IMG/VR virus record: IMGVR_UViG_3300044644_001556
Reading direction: 5' to 3' (one strand)
Origin: a virus
DNA length: 64,000 bases
Shown here: positions 32,911 to 57,037 of the stretch, in pieces
Layout of the letters: every line of letters begins with the position of its first letter
How positions within the stretch are numbered: the stretch's first letter is position 1
Translations under genes and position numbers: made by a program
Notes under the pieces: model-generated
Seen by the model: the letters and a program-made list of their open reading frames with translations, nothing else
Told to the model about the DNA's origin: nothing
Database searches by the model: none

Positions 32911-32972
32911 TTATTTACCTTTTTTAAATCGGTTAATCGAACAACTATTATATAATACTTTAATACAAAAAA

Positions 32973-42742: not shown

Positions 42743-42935
42743 AGATACATTTTAATTTCGCCAATGAAAGTTTTTGAAATTGCTGTTAGTATCTTTAAAT
42801 TATCTAGATATCATCTTTCAATTATAAAATTGATATCTATAACTCGGAGTGAGTTTTATTTTTTTTAAAAATCCATTTTAACTAGATACATTTTAATTTC
42901 GCCAATGAAAGTTTTTGAAATTGCTGTTAGTATCT
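42743..42935 (-). repeat. two identical 52-nt hairpin units (AGATACTAACAGCAA...GTATCT)
   Basis: 42743-42794 equals 42884-42935. Confidence 0.9.
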
Positions 42936-50339: not shown

Positions 50340-50711
50340 TTAGACCTCTTCGGGTAATTCACTATCTAAAATATAGTCGATAAATTCACTAAGTTCGCCT
50401 GCGTTGTAATTAGGGTATTCGTTTCGTATTTCATCTTCCGATCCAGTAATGGGTTTATCATTATAAGAAACGATTACTGTACCATCACTGAGTAATAATA
50501 ATTGAATTGTTGATATTTTACCTAATTCGGAATTATATGCAATAACCTTAGTATCTGATTTCCAATTAACTTGATCGTAATCATATTGTTTTAACTTTGG
50601 ATTAACAACTTCATAAAATTTACGTTTTTGTTTTTCGTAAAATTGATTTATACCTTTTATTCCACCGAATAATAAATCTGGAGTTTTATAATATTTGTAT
50701 AAATTTAACAT
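50340..50711 (-). CDS. late protein with LNLYxY N-terminal motif
   Basis: MLNLYKYYKTP; TATAAATA at 50736-50743. Confidence 0.55.
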   Translation of the reverse strand: MLNLYKYYKTPDLLFGGIKGINQFYEKQKRKFYEVVNPKLKQYDYDQVNWKSDTKVIAYNSELGKISTIQLLLLSDGTVIVSYNDKPITGSEDEIRNEYPNYNAGELSEFIDYILDSELPEEV

Positions 50712-50776
50712 TGATATTTACCGGATCAAATAACATATTTATATATTATTCGATCCGATAATCACATATCATAATA

Positions 50777-51025: not shown

Positions 51026-51899
51026 TTTAATTTTCCTTAAATGTCTTATTAATTCAATTAATTGTTAGGATTCTGGATTACTTAGTTGCTTCAATTGTTC
51101 GTGGGTTTTATACCCGAAATAAAATATATTATTTTCTGCGACACAGAACGAATAACCATCACGTTCAATAAGCAATAGATAATCAATACTACCTTCAGGA
51201 TTCGATAACCAACCACTTTCTGAAATTTCATTGACTAATTCAGTTAACTCAACAGCATCTTGAATATCTTCGAAAAAAGCATCTTGATCTTCATTATCTT
51301 TATCTTTTAATTCCGTGGCGAATTTAATAACCGATAATGGAACCGCAAATTGTTCGTAATGCGTTTTACCCTGATTTTTTTTAATAGCTAAAACATTTAA
51401 CATATATTCTCTCCTATTCTGCGATGGTTAAATTAAACAATTGAACATTCCAAACAACGCCACCGGCGGCTTCAACTTTAGCATACTTAGCAAATAATTC
51501 TACTATTTTACCGGTCATTACTCGATCGTCAGGAACCCAAGTTACATTCATTCCAACTTTATATGGGTTACTAACTTGTTGTTGGTATGGGTTAATGTGA
51601 TGTGCGTACGAAACTGGTCCAACTCTCATATATTTCTCCTATATTATATCTAATTTAGACTACAATGTCTACCTATTTTACAAATTAATTAATCCAGTTA
51701 CTAAAAAAATAAGAAATAATATTCCTATTATTGCAGCAATACTAATTCTATGAATAAATGTTTCTTGACTTAATCGAAACTTCGAAAAATTATGCAATTG
51801 TTTTTGACGTCTATTAATCCGTCTGTGTTTTATATGACGTTTTATTTTATTCAATCTACTCATATTATTTCCTTTTTAAAATCGGACTCTAAAAAAACA

Positions 51900-52047
51900 A
51901 ACCGATGTATTACTATTAGTATCCCAAATCGGTTACCAGATACGTTATATAGAAGTGTGACTATCTATACCTTGAAATGCAAAAATAAAAGTGATAGATA
52001 AACGCAAGTTCACTTTTATCATAATAAAATATCGATAGTAATCGCAA
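51900..52047 (-). ncRNA. double-pseudoknot leader RNA, copy A
   Basis: Homologous to 56278-56443, with compensatory stem changes. Confidence 0.6.
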
Positions 52048-52061
52048 TAATTTTATTATGT

Positions 52062-52667
52062 TTATCTAATTCTAGGAATCAATATATGATTTCTAATGAC
52101 ATCACATACGATAGGCTTATAGTTACCATTGGTATCTAATGATGCCATTCCATTATTACTTAACCAATTACTTAGTTGATTAGCATTTTCAAACGATATT
52201 TGTTCGTATGTATTACCTGATTTGCCGTATACGAACCCGTTACCCACACCGGGATATACGGTAACGACTTTATCATGATCGACATTAAAATTTAATCGGA
52301 TCAGACTATTTGGTCGTTCCATCGACGTATCAATGTAATCGATTATTTCAGCCTCAATAATTTTATTGCTGCTACCGGATCGAATAAATCTAACCATTAT
52401 TAAATTTGGGCCAGTATACTTAGATCCTCCGGGGATATAACCTATCATTATCGGTTTACCGATAGATTCAGAATCAAATAATGTATTAGAAGCATATACT
52501 TGAACTGCATCAGGATCATGTCGATTAGTCGGTTCGTGTTTTAACCAACCAATATCGCCAGTACGAATATTACTATATACTGCATTTGCTTCTACATCTC
52601 GATAATAATTACCGACTACTCGATATTTAGTTCCAACCCACTGATTAACTAATGCCTCGCGGACCAT
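52062..52667 (-). CDS. HIRAN-domain protein
   Basis: VVG..YR...LKHEPTNRHDPDAVQVY...IGYIP. Confidence 0.7.
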   Translation of the reverse strand: MVREALVNQWVGTKYRVVGNYYRDVEANAVYSNIRTGDIGWLKHEPTNRHDPDAVQVYASNTLFDSESIGKPIMIGYIPGGSKYTGPNLIMVRFIRSGSSNKIIEAEIIDYIDTSMERPNSLIRLNFNVDHDKVVTVYPGVGNGFVYGKSGNTYEQISFENANQLSNWLSNNGMASLDTNGNYKPIVCDVIRNHILIPRIR

Positions 52668-52813
52668 ATCTATAGTTTGGAAACCGTAATACTTAATACC
52701 ATCTGGATCTGATGGTGCGTCTTTATACGGATCTGATTGAGATATACCATTATCTTCTATTTCACGACAAATAGATTTACTATATGGCGATATCGTTTCA
52801 ATCGGATCCGATT

Positions 52814-53458
52814 TTACTTTTTTCCGAAGCCGCCATTCATCATCATCATTAATGGCAACATCTGAGCCATAGGATTAGCCGTACCCCCACCCATAGTTTG
52901 ACTCATTAATAACATAGGAATCATTTTATCCGCAGTATCAGAATCATCTAACATACCCATCATCATCATTGGCATTAAACTTTGTTGGAAATTATTTACA
53001 CCATCTGAAGGCATCATATTAAATAAGCTACGCAAAATCATCACACCACTTTCAATACCAAGCATTGAAACTTTAGGTGGAGTCCAATCACTACGCGTTC
53101 CATCTTGTTTTAATAATTTAAAGCTTTTTTCTCGAATCTGAACGACCCAACCTAATGCTTTACCAGTTGAACTAGAATAAACTAAATCGCCTAATGAAAT
53201 AGAATTAACTGGAATGCTTTGAGCGAATGCTGGAATACTCATACCCATCTGATCAAACATATTAACACATACTTGGGGTTCTAACGCTTCTTTTTTATCG
53301 TCAGTTAATTCGCCAAGTTCTAAACTTAGAATACCTTCTGATGTATTAAAGCCGATATTACCAGTACCTAAATCCCAAACCATATTATCTACTTTTTTAA
53401 ATAATCGATCTACGAATTTTGAATTAAATTGATTTGAAAAATTATTTACATTATTCAT
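52814..53458 (-). CDS. conserved phage protein with Met-rich C-terminus
   Basis: IPAFAQ...GD; repeated PMMMM tail; promoter at 53500-53528. Confidence 0.6.
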   Translation of the reverse strand: MNNVNNFSNQFNSKFVDRLFKKVDNMVWDLGTGNIGFNTSEGILSLELGELTDDKKEALEPQVCVNMFDQMGMSIPAFAQSIPVNSISLGDLVYSSSTGKALGWVVQIREKSFKLLKQDGTRSDWTPPKVSMLGIESGVMILRSLFNMMPSDGVNNFQQSLMPMMMMGMLDDSDTADKMIPMLLMSQTMGGGTANPMAQMLPLMMMMNGGFGKK

Positions 53459-53499
53459 ATTATTACCTTTTAATAAGTGTTATTTGTTACTACCTAAAT

Positions 53500-53528
53500 A
53501 TTATATCATACTTTAATACTTAGATCAA
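53500..53528 (-). promoter_or_regulatory. early promoter with conserved spacer
   Basis: TTGATC-taagtattaaagtatga-TATAAT. Confidence 0.75.
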
Positions 53529-53932
53529 CTAAAATCTTTATCTGATGGGTTGACTTCGAATCCGTAACTGTCGATATCGAATCCAGATTGTCGATATGAA
53601 TCGGCGATTATCTTTTGCGGCATTAAATTTCGTTGTTTACAACACCAAATATCAACACCTTCATTTAAATAATGTTGATATAGATTGATTATTTGATGAT
53701 ATTGAAGTTGGATTGCGTCCGCACTACCCCAAAAGAATAAATCATTGCAATTTACATATATCCCGATTGCATTGCGGGCGTATTTTGATAATTTTTTATC
53801 TTCTACTTCATCATCGAAGGTTAATGTGTTTATGAAAACTATTCCTTTAGCCAATAAAAATGCTAAAATATCAGTAGTATCATCTTCATCTATTTCTGAC
53901 GGATCGATAGTAACTAAATCTAATTTACTCAT
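53525..53932 (-). CDS. conserved phage hypothetical protein
   Basis: VNCNDLFFWGSADA motif. Confidence 0.55.
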   Translation of the reverse strand: MSKLDLVTIDPSEIDEDDTTDILAFLLAKGIVFINTLTFDDEVEDKKLSKYARNAIGIYVNCNDLFFWGSADAIQLQYHQIINLYQHYLNEGVDIWCCKQRNLMPQKIIADSYRQSGFDIDSYGFEVNPSDKDFS

Positions 53933-54148
53933 TATTGCTCACCTTATGGTATTAAATGAACTCTATTAGCAGCTATTCGAATATTGACTCCATCGCTGCG
54001 TTTAATACATAGAGTCGGAATTTCGGTATAAATTACTTTAGTAATAACGCCAGTCGAATTCGGTTGGTTTTTAACTAACCAATAAACTTTATCACCGGGT
54101 TGTAATTTTTTACGTAATTTTGACATAACTCATTTCCTAAATAAAACA

Positions 54149-55045
54149 TTAATCAATATCGTGTTCTAAATTATATAATTCAGTATCTAATATTTTAGTG
54201 GTCGCTTCAATTAACATCCGATAGCCCCCATGATCGCAAGCTTGACTACCTTCATGACAACCAGGTAACCATTGCTTACGAGTTTTATCTATCAAATTAT
54301 TAACAAACGTACCTTTAATATAATCAGTAAGAAATACAGTTAATTCTTCAACCTTGTTTTTGACTATTAATTCAATAATATGATCATTCAAATTAAAGAA
54401 TGTATTTCTAATATCATGCATCAATGTAACAACTACTAAATTAACTCTATTAGTTATTGGTGATTTTTCAAAGTAGCTTGAAAAACTGCTACTACTATTC
54501 AATTTAAATATAGAAAACATGATACTGTGGGTTGGATCATCTGGATCCGCCATACCACTTACCTTGTTTGTTAATACCTCAATAAATTCTGGTATTTCAC
54601 TAAGAACTTCTTGATATGTATATGGTTGATAACCTGATGCCTCAGCTATATAAACTTCCCGTACCCAATTGTCTAATACATAATCAACTACGTCTTTACG
54701 CATCATAACGAAATCGATCAATCCTCCACCATAAGGATTATTGTATGTGATTTCATTGTCATGAACTAAATCAAAGAATTGATCGACATCAAATTCATCA
54801 TCGTTAGATATATTACATTTTTCCTTGATCGCACGCATCAATGGATCCAATATCACTCCATGTGCATTATTACCACCACCGTAATCATTATAGTTACATT
54901 CAAACGGTACTAATACTGGTGTGAAGAACGATGTGCTGTAACATCTACCTACACCGCTATTCTGGACCAATATAAATGTATAAACTGGTTTATTATCAGT
55001 TATATGCAAATTCGATAAACCACATGTCTTATTCCAGCAACCCAT
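54149..55045 (-). CDS. conserved phage hypothetical protein
   Basis: MGCWNKTCGLSNL...YNDYG...GSQ. Confidence 0.6.
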   Translation of the reverse strand: MGCWNKTCGLSNLHITDNKPVYTFILVQNSGVGRCYSTSFFTPVLVPFECNYNDYGGGNNAHGVILDPLMRAIKEKCNISNDDEFDVDQFFDLVHDNEITYNNPYGGGLIDFVMMRKDVVDYVLDNWVREVYIAEASGYQPYTYQEVLSEIPEFIEVLTNKVSGMADPDDPTHSIMFSIFKLNSSSSFSSYFEKSPITNRVNLVVVTLMHDIRNTFFNLNDHIIELIVKNKVEELTVFLTDYIKGTFVNNLIDKTRKQWLPGCHEGSQACDHGGYRMLIEATTKILDTELYNLEHDID

Positions 55046-55243
55046 TATATTTTCCTAATTTTGACTTACGTAAAAAACGGTTTTGCAATCATTGCATTCA
55101 TACATAATTACTCGGTTATCGTAAATTTCAGTGACTACTGGAGTAAAATGTTCGTGGACTTCTAAAATTCCGCCATTCGGACTAATTGTTTTATCTAATT
55201 GATCACTTGAACAATCTGGGCATTGCATAATTATATTCTCCGT

Positions 55244-55537
55244 TTAACTATATCGTACTAGCAAAAGTAAAGCTGGATTTGGTCTTCTTCGATCTTTTGG
55301 AAATGTGGTCCAGTAGTTAGATATTATACGTCTATTATACGATTTATCTAGCTCTATTTTATTAGTTAATTGTTTAGTAATAATTAACGTATTGATATAT
55401 AAACTTAAATCTTGATAATTAGGAACTTGCCAATGCCTATACCCATCATGATTAAAAAACTGACGATATAATTGGACCTCAGACCAATTATTAATTACTT
55501 TAATTGAATCTATTGGCGCCCATATTAATTCATTCAT
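55244..55537 (-). CDS. divergent mini DUF1566/Lcl-like protein
   Basis: WAP...NWSE..LY.QFF.HDGYRHWQVP...YWT...LLVR. Confidence 0.6.
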   Translation of the reverse strand: MNELIWAPIDSIKVINNWSEVQLYRQFFNHDGYRHWQVPNYQDLSLYINTLIITKQLTNKIELDKSYNRRIISNYWTTFPKDRRRPNPALLLLVRYS

Positions 55538-55545
55538 ATTTTAAA

Positions 55546-56226
55546 TTAAGCAGGAACTAAAACTGCAGCTAAAGCTTCTAATTGTTCTTTAGATAATCCA
55601 GAATTATTAGTTATTGATTGGACTTGTCGTTCTTCCTCGAAATCATTTACGAATTGTTTATATTGATGATATAAGCGACTATTTTGCTTGATTACATCTT
55701 CACCTAATTCAAATCGACCTTTTAAAACTTCTTTCGCGTAACTTAATGCAAATCTATCTTCGGTTGCAATAGCCGCTTCGCCTAACGGAAATGGTTCTTT
55801 TAATATATTTCTAGAGTAATAAAATGCATAATGCGGATCAGATGCGATTATAGGCTCACCTAATTCAAATCGTTCTTTAATTACTTCGGCGTAAGTAAAT
55901 GCATATCCCGGATTATCGATGAATAAATGATCTGCTAAATGGAATCGACCTTTTAAAATAGTTTTTGCATAATTTAAACTAAATAGTTCATTTGTCGCAA
56001 TAATATCTTCGCCTAATGTAAATGGACCTTTTAAAACTTTATATGCATATTCGTAGCTATATTCTGCCGATAACGCAATTATCTGTTCTAATTCATCATT
56101 CGGTTCTTCTAACGCTAATGCAATTTGGAATGCGGCTTTCGGACTAATAACTTTAACTAATATTTCTTTAGCTGGAAAATCATTAGATTGATCTTTAATT
56201 TCATCTACTTGTGTAATTTCGGTCAT
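55546..56226 (-). CDS. helical repeat protein (~24 aa units)
   Basis: Repeats Y.YA..VLKGRF.LGE..IA. Confidence 0.7.
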   Translation of the reverse strand: MTEITQVDEIKDQSNDFPAKEILVKVISPKAAFQIALALEEPNDELEQIIALSAEYSYEYAYKVLKGPFTLGEDIIATNELFSLNYAKTILKGRFHLADHLFIDNPGYAFTYAEVIKERFELGEPIIASDPHYAFYYSRNILKEPFPLGEAAIATEDRFALSYAKEVLKGRFELGEDVIKQNSRLYHQYKQFVNDFEEERQVQSITNNSGLSKEQLEALAAVLVPA

Positions 56227-56277
56227 AAATATTCCTTTTTATAAATCGGTTAAGTCATAGAACTTTAAATTAATAAA

Positions 56278-56443
56278 TGACTGATGTATTACTATTTGTA
56301 TCCCAGATCAGTCAATAGATACGTTATACTCAATCTAACTCGAACCAAGGCAATGGTGTAAATTAAATTAGTACCTTATAAGGAGAGTGGACGCCCAAAC
56401 TATCCACTACTTATGATAAACGAACTTTCGATAGTAATTGCAA
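56278..56443 (-). ncRNA. double-pseudoknot leader RNA, copy B
   Basis: Homologous to 51900-52047. Confidence 0.6.
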
Positions 56444-56973: not shown

Positions 56974-57037
56974 TATCTATTCCGTTTATTTTTAATTCAA
57001 TATATTATAATACGATAATACACATAAGTCAACAAAA

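Follow-up and report, generated by a model that had tools for sequence, protein, structure and literature searches.

Two copies of a conserved, RNA-like leader element with a terminator-like closing hairpin in an uncultured T4-like phage

Introduction

What function is served by two intergenic regions that carry the same ordered sequence blocks upstream of two unrelated genes? This question is raised by positions 51,900–56,443 of a 64,000-nucleotide (nt) stretch of DNA, hereafter the window, from the IMG/VR virus record IMGVR_UViG_3300044644_001556, whose source is a T4-like, AT-rich large phage. A preliminary description of the window had placed two copies of a leader RNA at this locus. We refer to the two copies as A and B. 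In the model used here, each copy would comprise a conserved 5' block, two hairpins (HP1 and HP2), a junction block, and a closing hairpin (T) with a covarying stem of 7–8 base pairs (bp), a conserved 21-nt loop, and a U-rich tail. P1 and P3 denote the proposed pairings of the T loop with the 5' block and with the junction block, respectively. The coordinates of all these features are summarized in Table 1.

Results

Two conserved copies on the minus strand

Copies A and B share three blocks with an identity of ~100%, and the sequence between these blocks is unalignable. The order in both copies is TTGC(G/A)ATTACTATCGA, 82 or 99 nt of unalignable sequence, TATAACGTATCT, 11 nt including the 5' half of the T stem, (T/C)TGGGATAC(T/A)AATAGTAATAC, the 3' half-stem, a T-rich tail, CCGATTTwwAAAAAGGAA, and ATG. 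The 20-mer core TGGGATACWAATAGTAATAC occurred exactly 2 times in the 64 kb, compared with 0.06 expected, and none of 100 shuffled sequences reached 2 occurrences. The 5' block likewise occurred 2 times in the window at 0 mismatches. A covariance model (R1) of the 3' domain of the element, run on the window with filters off, gave 88–90 bits on copies A and B and ≤19 bits anywhere else. These results confirm that the two-copy observation is real and is not due to chance. The two minus-strand copies of the preliminary description therefore stand, with their blocks, stems, and ATGs located and with the 20-mer core unique to them.

The next-best R1 match (33767–33702) was considered as a third copy and was treated as a chance match; it lies within the gene of a full-length phrog_4243 protein and has no U tract. 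The look-alike as a whole (33790–33702, minus strand; 19 bits, E 0.3) is found inside the open reading frame (ORF) 34241–33567 and has neither HP1 nor HP2. It contains an exact ATTACTAT upstream, AAAGTACC, the stem AGCGGA/TCCGCT, the loop CTTGGGTATTCCTAGTTATATT, and a P3-like pairing.

Closing hairpin and U-rich tail

Five T-stem positions distinguish the two copies, and these differences amount to 2 changes on both sides of the stem (A-U to G-C and C-G to U-A) and 1 gained pair. When the 9 observed differences were placed at random in a simulation, the probability of ≥2 compensatory pairs was p = 0.0026. The covariation of the closing stem, which had been claimed from the letters of the window, thus holds with 2 compensatory pairs and 1 gained pair at p ~0.003.

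The stem has 7–8 bp with 3 G-C pairs, and a U tract follows it directly in both copies (UUGUUUUUUU in copy A and UUUAUUAAUUU, which is interrupted, in copy B). As judged from the sequence, the stem and the U tract form a weak intrinsic-terminator-like hairpin, which the preliminary description had missed. The hairpin energies of T were −7.5 and −9.5 kcal/mol, compared with −12.3 to −19.5 kcal/mol for six canonical terminators of the same phage, and T is thus approximately half as stable as these terminators. The loop comprises 21 nt in both copies, which is longer than the 3–8 nt of the short-loop criterion for an intrinsic terminator, and the T sites were not called by the consensus scan. The possibility that the T loop harbors a late promoter was also considered and was rejected, as the late motif of the phage, TATAAATA, is absent from the loop.

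Hairpins of the variable middle

Each copy, folded on its own, formed two hairpins in its variable middle (z −1.8 and −2.1), and these hairpins lie at matching places in A and B; the equivalence was derived from single-sequence folds together with hand alignment. HP1 begins at (G/C)AUAA, and copy B in the hand alignment has one A-U pair of copy A replaced by G-C and one G-C pair added. HP2 is flanked by the conserved and mutually complementary segments AAGGUA and UAUAAC, between which the insert measures 23 nt in copy A and 48 nt in copy B. The two inserts differ in sequence, and each is self-complementary. The minus strand of copy B folded at −26.3 kcal/mol and the plus strand at −15.9 kcal/mol, owing to the G-U pairs. 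The far better folding of the minus strand indicates that the element acts as RNA of the gene-sense strand. These results support the view that the element is conserved, strand-specific, structured, and RNA-like.

Pairings of the closing loop

The preliminary description had also proposed that the T loop pairs with two upstream segments. Both complementarities are present in both copies. P1 joins ATTACTAT of the 5' block and ATAGTAAT of the T loop over 8 bp (as RNA, loop AUAGUAAU with AUUACUAU), and P3 joins GTATC(T) of the junction block and (G)GATAC of the T loop over 5–6 bp. The P1 complementarity between two conserved blocks has a chance probability of p ~0.006. The RNAalifold consensus of the two copies consisted of exactly P1 and P3, which close a four-way junction with HP1 and HP2. 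In constrained folding, the nested state and the T state were nearly isoenergetic (−25.3 versus −25.7 kcal/mol in copy A and −37.3 versus −35.8 kcal/mol in copy B).

The helix strands follow one another in the order P1-5', HP1, HP2, P3-5', T-5', P3-3', P1-3', and T-3'. With this order, P3 and T could together make a classical H-type pseudoknot, whose connecting loops would measure 3, 1, and 12 nt and whose long loop would carry P1. The threaded pseudoknot, as drawn, is a sterically plausible candidate structure. The junction bases CGA, AAGG, UAAC, UA/AA, and AC are invariant, as are the loop and the 5' block, and the surroundings have diverged beyond alignment. Such invariance of the loop, junction, and 5' block amid divergence suggests either a tertiary core or a ligand or protein that recognizes the sequence specifically.

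Two further pairings were tried and rejected. An anti-terminator formed by AUCGAU of the 5' block and the 3' strand of T is present in the minimum-free-energy fold of copy A and is impossible in copy B. An alternative hairpin between the 3' strand of T and the segment before the ribosome site has 5–6 bp in both copies and was unconvincing, with different registers in the two copies.

Promoters and leaders

All intergenic regions of the window were read, and the phage was found to follow a regular grammar in which a G+C-rich short-loop terminator is followed by a TTGACx-17-(TGn)TATAAT promoter, the leader TTGTTGTATTAACTAATTTAAAAAAGG, and ATG. No canonical phage promoter was found between T and the next ATG in either copy; the leader is kept. 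The absence of a canonical promoter after T indicates that the downstream genes are reached by read-through. The upstream canonical promoters from which read-through would come are located at 57037–56974 for copy B and at 53524–53459 for copy A. The 5' strand of HP1 overlaps the only −10-like hexamers in the elements, and the folded RNA must therefore start upstream of them.

A promoter-like TTGATT-16-CATAAT is located at 52082–52055 on the minus strand, and its start would fall almost exactly at the first base of the 5' block of copy A; copy B has no counterpart. A leader peptide was considered and rejected, as the 25-codon ORF is confined to copy A, lacks a ribosome-binding site, and is not matched in copy B.

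The gene-proximal block CCGATTT..AAAAAGGAA is a variant of the leader/ribosome-site motif TTAACTAATTTAAAAAAGG, which follows most early promoters. A third CCGATTT case was found at 32932–32915 behind an ordinary promoter. The preliminary description had noted the motif before the two genes that follow the elements; it is generic to the phage and does not set these genes apart.

Searches for families and homologues

A search of the window against Rfam 15 at gathering thresholds gave only the 12 tRNAs. At E values up to 10, the best overlap with the element was the DUF2815 RNA, at 18.8 bits compared with a gathering threshold of 41.2 bits (E 7.2). The earlier impression that the element fits no familiar riboswitch or ribozyme consensus was thus borne out at both settings. 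No element homologue was found in INPHARED by megablast or blastn. The exact-core search of IMG/VR gave 9 matches, all of them chance matches inside coding sequence, and a relaxed IMG/VR pattern gave 34 matches, approximately the number expected by chance, none of which scored with the covariance model. Two different composite patterns found no match in the JGI metagenomes, and no element match was found in the GTDB genomes.

Through the flanking proteins, no close relatives were traced in IMG/VR. For the 226-amino acid (aa) protein encoded after copy B, the best homologues share 41–51% identity, and no element was found in the contexts of these homologues (six loci) or in whole-record model searches of six IMG/VR records. 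The element is real and uncatalogued and is probably new; we infer its function in the Discussion.

Neighboring genes and other features of the window

The window is a phage segment with 31% G+C and 12 tRNA genes, and it encodes NAMPT, an NMNAT/Nudix protein, an RNA ligase, a helicase, and a macro-domain protein. The closest cultured relatives show <50% protein identity. The genes after copies A and B are unrelated to each other. The 226-aa protein belongs to a family of >170 proteins with no Pfam domain, which are encoded on large phage contigs of up to 622 kb, and a letter-for-letter identical sequence is present in the ESM Atlas. Among the genes upstream of the elements, only a Macro domain and a HIRAN domain were recognized.

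Small hairpin RNAs were observed on the minus strand at 42935–42884, 42794–42743, and 41453–41335, in the tRNA island and behind canonical promoters. They have a terminal stem AGAU(A/U)C:G(A/U)AUCU and an invariant UAACAGCAA, and no Rfam family covers them. Their pattern is also present in five IMG/VR records of large phages (48–373 kb, 25–39% G+C), sometimes in arrays or adjacent to tRNAs.

The T4-type late motif TATAAATA is found on the coding strand 30–40 nt before start codons at 2596, 18517, 38657, 50743, and 60434. This placement suggests that the phage uses T4-type (gp55-like) late transcription. A hairpin AUCGGAUC ... GAUCCGGU at 50776–50712 on the minus strand contains TATAAATA in its 24-nt loop just before the ATG at 50711, which corresponds to the classical T4 arrangement with late transcripts starting inside the hairpin.

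Table 1. Positions of the two elements, their parts, the downstream genes, and examples of ordinary early gene units in the window
Feature	Position	Strand	Remarks
Copy A, element	52047-51891	minus	intergenic region 52061-51864 (198 nt)
Copy B, element	56443-56267	minus	intergenic region 56502-56227 (276 nt)
Copy A, conserved 5' block	52047-52032	minus	TTGCGATTACTATCGA; P1 5' strand ATTACTAT at 52042-52035; also a weak -35-like TTGCGA
Copy B, conserved 5' block	56443-56428	minus	TTGCAATTACTATCGA; P1 5' strand at 56438-56431
Copy A, HP1	51984-52020	minus	11 bp, 15-nt loop
Copy B, HP1	56378-56414	minus	lower stem 5 bp, upper stem 7 bp, 2 apical pairs
Copy A, HP2	51947-51970	minus	conserved base GUA:UAU, which takes in bases 1-3 of the TATAAC block
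Copy B, HP2	56326-56374	minus	long, four G-U pairs; same conserved base GUA:UAU as copy A
Copy A, junction block	51949-51938	minus	TATAACGTATCT; P3 5' strand GTATCT at 51943-51938
Copy B, junction block	56328-56317	minus	TATAACGTATCT; P3 5' strand at 56322-56317
Copy A, terminator-like hairpin T	51899-51935	minus	stem AACCGAT 51934-51928 with ATCGGTT 51906-51900; 21-nt loop 51927-51907
Copy A, T-loop strands	51924-51919; 51916-51909	minus	P3 3' strand; P1 3' strand
Copy B, terminator-like hairpin T	56278-56314	minus	stem TGACTGAT 56314-56307 with ATCAGTCA 56285-56278; loop 56306-56286
Copy B, T-loop strands	56303-56298; 56295-56288	minus	P3 3' strand; P1 3' strand
Copy A, U-rich tail	51888-51898	minus	GTTTTTTT then AGA; directly after T stem; T run 51897-51891
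Copy B, U-rich tail	56267-56277	minus	TTTATTAATTT
Copy A, gene-proximal block	51861-51885	minus	CCGATTTTAAAAAGGAAATAAT + ATG; generic leader/ribosome-site block; ATG 51863
Copy B, gene-proximal block	56224-56249	minus	CCGATTTATAAAAAGGAATATTT + ATG; generic leader/ribosome-site block; ATG 56226
Gene after copy A	51863-51678	minus	61-aa basic protein, hydrophobic C-terminus
Gene after copy B	56226-55546	minus	226-aa acidic protein, phage-only family
Uniform early gene units, examples	57037-56974; 53524-53459; 24475-24374; 17448-17302	minus	repeated cassettes resembling promoter-early stem-loop (PeSL) cassettes

Discussion

A weak terminator-like hairpin stands at the place usually taken by the promoter, directly before a canonical leader, and is best read as an attenuator of read-through. 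We tentatively favor the reading that the elements are a cis-acting structured leader RNA and a conditional attenuator, in which the efficiency of termination depends on contacts of the T loop; we consider this reading possible rather than probable. The two copies would be paralogous leader RNAs of ~155–175 nt, transcribed on the minus strand within early polycistronic messages, and the next gene would be expressed only by polymerase that comes from the upstream canonical promoters and passes T. The element would thereby set, and probably conditionally change, the amount of transcription that continues past T. Contacts of the T loop with the 5' block (P1) and the junction block (P3) would close a four-way junction threaded through T. 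Forming or blocking these contacts may tune the weak termination at T, probably via a phage or host factor that recognizes the invariant bases of the junction and loop.

Several observations weigh against the attenuator reading. The P3 complementarity is at the level of chance (p ~0.2), and all 14 pairs of P1 and P3 are invariant, which means that the pseudoknot contacts show no covariation. When 30 nt of upstream context was included in a model without pseudoknots, the probability of T was 0.99 and that of P1 was ≤0.12. Of the proposal that the loop pairs with two upstream segments, the complementarities themselves thus remain, P1 being the better of the two, but they are invariant, P3 may be fortuitous, and the energy model prefers the plain hairpin. 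The nested double pseudoknot of the preliminary description is accordingly not established. The folding z-scores of the whole elements were only −1.0 and −1.4, and no pairs emerged when HP1 and HP2 were folded as a consensus on MAFFT alignments, since their sequences are unalignable. A 21-nt loop on a weak stem is atypical of an intrinsic terminator, and the U tract of copy B is broken up. The comparison involves only two sequences from one genome, in which gene conversion could hold the blocks identical, and INPHARED, IMG/VR, JGI metagenomes, and GTDB genomes yielded no homologue. The genes downstream of the elements gave no known function that would suggest a signal.

A bolder reading, which we regard as unlikely, is that the elements represent a new class of regulatory RNA, whose sensor, a four-way junction, would run through the loop of the terminator hairpin of the same RNA and make a genuine double pseudoknot. 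A ligand or a phage protein bound at the invariant junction would directly pre-organize or block termination, and the class would so far be confined to an unsampled lineage of T4-like phages.

The preliminary description had named a riboswitch, a ribozyme, or a protein-binding leader as the possible identities of the element. A structured leader RNA is indeed supported, but nothing separates these three identities, and no riboswitch or ribozyme model matches. A small-molecule riboswitch, in which the four-way junction of P1, HP1, HP2, and P3 would be the aptamer and its ligand-dependent closure would control T, strikes us as rather unlikely. Its architecture is aptamer-like, with an invariant junction, peripheral stems that vary in length and sequence, and a terminator-like hairpin with a U tract as a possible expression platform, and the near equality in energy of the nested and terminator states would suit a switch. 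However, no Rfam riboswitch family was found even at E up to 10, and the collections searched contained no homologues, whereas riboswitch classes are normally widespread. Moreover, the two genes that would be regulated are unrelated and have no known function, and no mutually exclusive anti-terminator is conserved in both copies.

The same doubt applies, to about the same degree, to the reading of the elements as independent small-RNA genes. The 5' block would then be a weak sigma-70 promoter (TTGCRA, 18–19 nt, TATSAT), T would be the terminator of the small RNA, the loop would be its seed or protein-binding part, and the complementarity of ATTACTAT and ATAGTAAT would be irrelevant to the RNA. 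Copy A has TTGCGA/TATGAT (9/12 matches) and copy B has TTGCAA/TATCAT, with spacings of 18 and 19 nt, and T with its U tail would yield RNAs of ~115–135 nt in a phage with many small-RNA genes nearby. However, all recognizable small-RNA and early genes use a near-consensus TTGACx-17-TATAAT, which is absent here, the 18- and 19-nt gaps are unfavorable, and an invariant spacer is not a property of promoters. The 5' strand of HP1, including a compensatory pair, is located on and upstream of the would-be −10 and start, and the transcripts would consequently lack HP1. The 8-bp complementarity between the blocks (p ~0.006) would also be left unexplained.

Nor do we consider it likely, again at a similarly low level, that the elements are a protein-binding (ribonucleoprotein, RNP) or processing platform related to the ACAGCAA small hairpin RNAs of the phage, with a shared Hfq-like or Ro-like factor or a nuclease that would regulate or cleave the message. 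On this proposal, the helix GUAUCU:GAUAC and the 3' tail UAAUAGUAAU, with its three A-R-N triplets, would be bound in the manner of AGAUAC-UAACAGCAAU ... GUAUCU of the small RNAs. The regular expression GA[TA][AT]C.AA[CT]AG[CT]AA matched only 5 sites in the window, all on the minus strand, namely both elements and three small RNAs. The likeness extends to the partner strand with its flank (TATAACGTATCT versus TAAAATGTATCT), and where the sequences differ, they do so at the N positions of the A-R-N triplets. However, UAACAGCAA is invariant across five other large-phage records, whereas the elements have UAAUAGUAA or AAAUAGUAA, which would be non-equivalent if the C is required. The connectivity of the helices is permuted, and no candidate binding protein was identified among the proteins of the window. 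The likeness was found post hoc, with an estimated joint chance of only 0.001–0.01.

That the elements act at the DNA level, as a promoter/operator pair or a PeSL-like recombination cassette in which ATTACTAT and ATAGTAAT are inverted protein half-sites ~120–135 bp apart, appears improbable. The blocks are invariant and not covarying, and over 15 nt the loop motif is similar to the reverse complement of the 5' block (12/15 in copy A). PeSL cassettes recur between genes in the hyperplastic regions of T4-type phages, each with a stem-loop and a Shine-Dalgarno sequence (PMC2839356). However, the compensation in the T stem, the strand-specific G-U fold, and the variable self-complementary inserts at fixed positions are constraints of the RNA type, and the strong sigma-70 promoter that is the defining part of a PeSL is missing. 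The identical stretches of ≤14 bp would also be too short for efficient homologous recombination. Finally, phages are rich in small ribozymes and the interleaved order of P1, P3, and T is capable of forming a pseudoknot, but a self-cleaving ribozyme built around a double pseudoknot and processing the polycistronic message is very improbable, given that Rfam at E up to 10 gave no hammerhead, twister, twister-sister, pistol, hatchet, or HDV-like match, that the helix order differs from the HDV fold, and that no candidate cleavage site is conserved.

Pseudoknots occur in transcription-attenuating leaders and in the expression platforms of riboswitches such as preQ1-I, ZTP, and fluoride, and the element would work most like these. 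It shares with them a structured 5' leader that ends in a hairpin and a U tract directly upstream of a gene, an invariant core with variable peripheral stems, and potential long-range pairing around the terminator. Unlike in riboswitch platforms, the conserved strands of the element sit in the terminator loop and not over the stem, there is no evident mutually exclusive anti-terminator, and the element has no Rfam match or homologues.

The genomic placement of the elements resembles that of PeSL cassettes or of nut and put sites. The lambda nut and HK022 put sites are present in two copies per phage genome, in early operons, and consist of RNA blocks and hairpins that act in cis on polymerase. 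The elements likewise occur as two copies within early operons, upstream of unrelated genes, with conserved RNA blocks and hairpins. In contrast, they have no boxA/boxB or put-like sequence and carry their own terminator-like hairpin, and no antiterminator protein was identified. The PeSL cassettes of T4-type phages are ~100 bp long, are defined by a strong sigma-70 promoter, and often have GGGG/CCCC stems (Arbiol et al. 2010, PMC2839356). Their stem-loop attenuates upstream transcription, and the cassette ends in a Shine-Dalgarno sequence and ATG (PMC2839356). At the level of sequence, the elements are similar to these cassettes: both are regulatory units that recur between genes in shuffled regions of T4-like phage genomes, and both carry a stem-loop and close with a Shine-Dalgarno sequence and ATG. 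They differ in their length of 155–175 nt, their several hairpins, and the lack of a strong promoter, having only TTGCRA-18/19-TATSAT (9/12 in copy A). The ordinary terminator-promoter-leader units of the phage are better analogues of PeSL than the elements are.

The hairpins of the T4-family genes e, soc, and I-TevI have a late promoter nested in a large loop. The elements share with them a hairpin that lies immediately before a gene and whose conserved loop is unusually large; the same phage offers a clear example of the T4-family arrangement at 50776–50712. Unlike these hairpins, the loops of the elements contain neither TATAAATA nor TATAAT, and the stem leaves the ribosome-binding site uncovered.

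The general importance of the element is limited for now, with two copies from a single uncultured phage and regulated genes of no known function. The element is compact (~160 nt) and directly testable. If the attenuator reading is correct, the phage would replace its usual promoter before two accessory genes by a folded RNA that incorporates the loop of the terminator, which would be an unusual coupling of RNA tertiary structure to termination.

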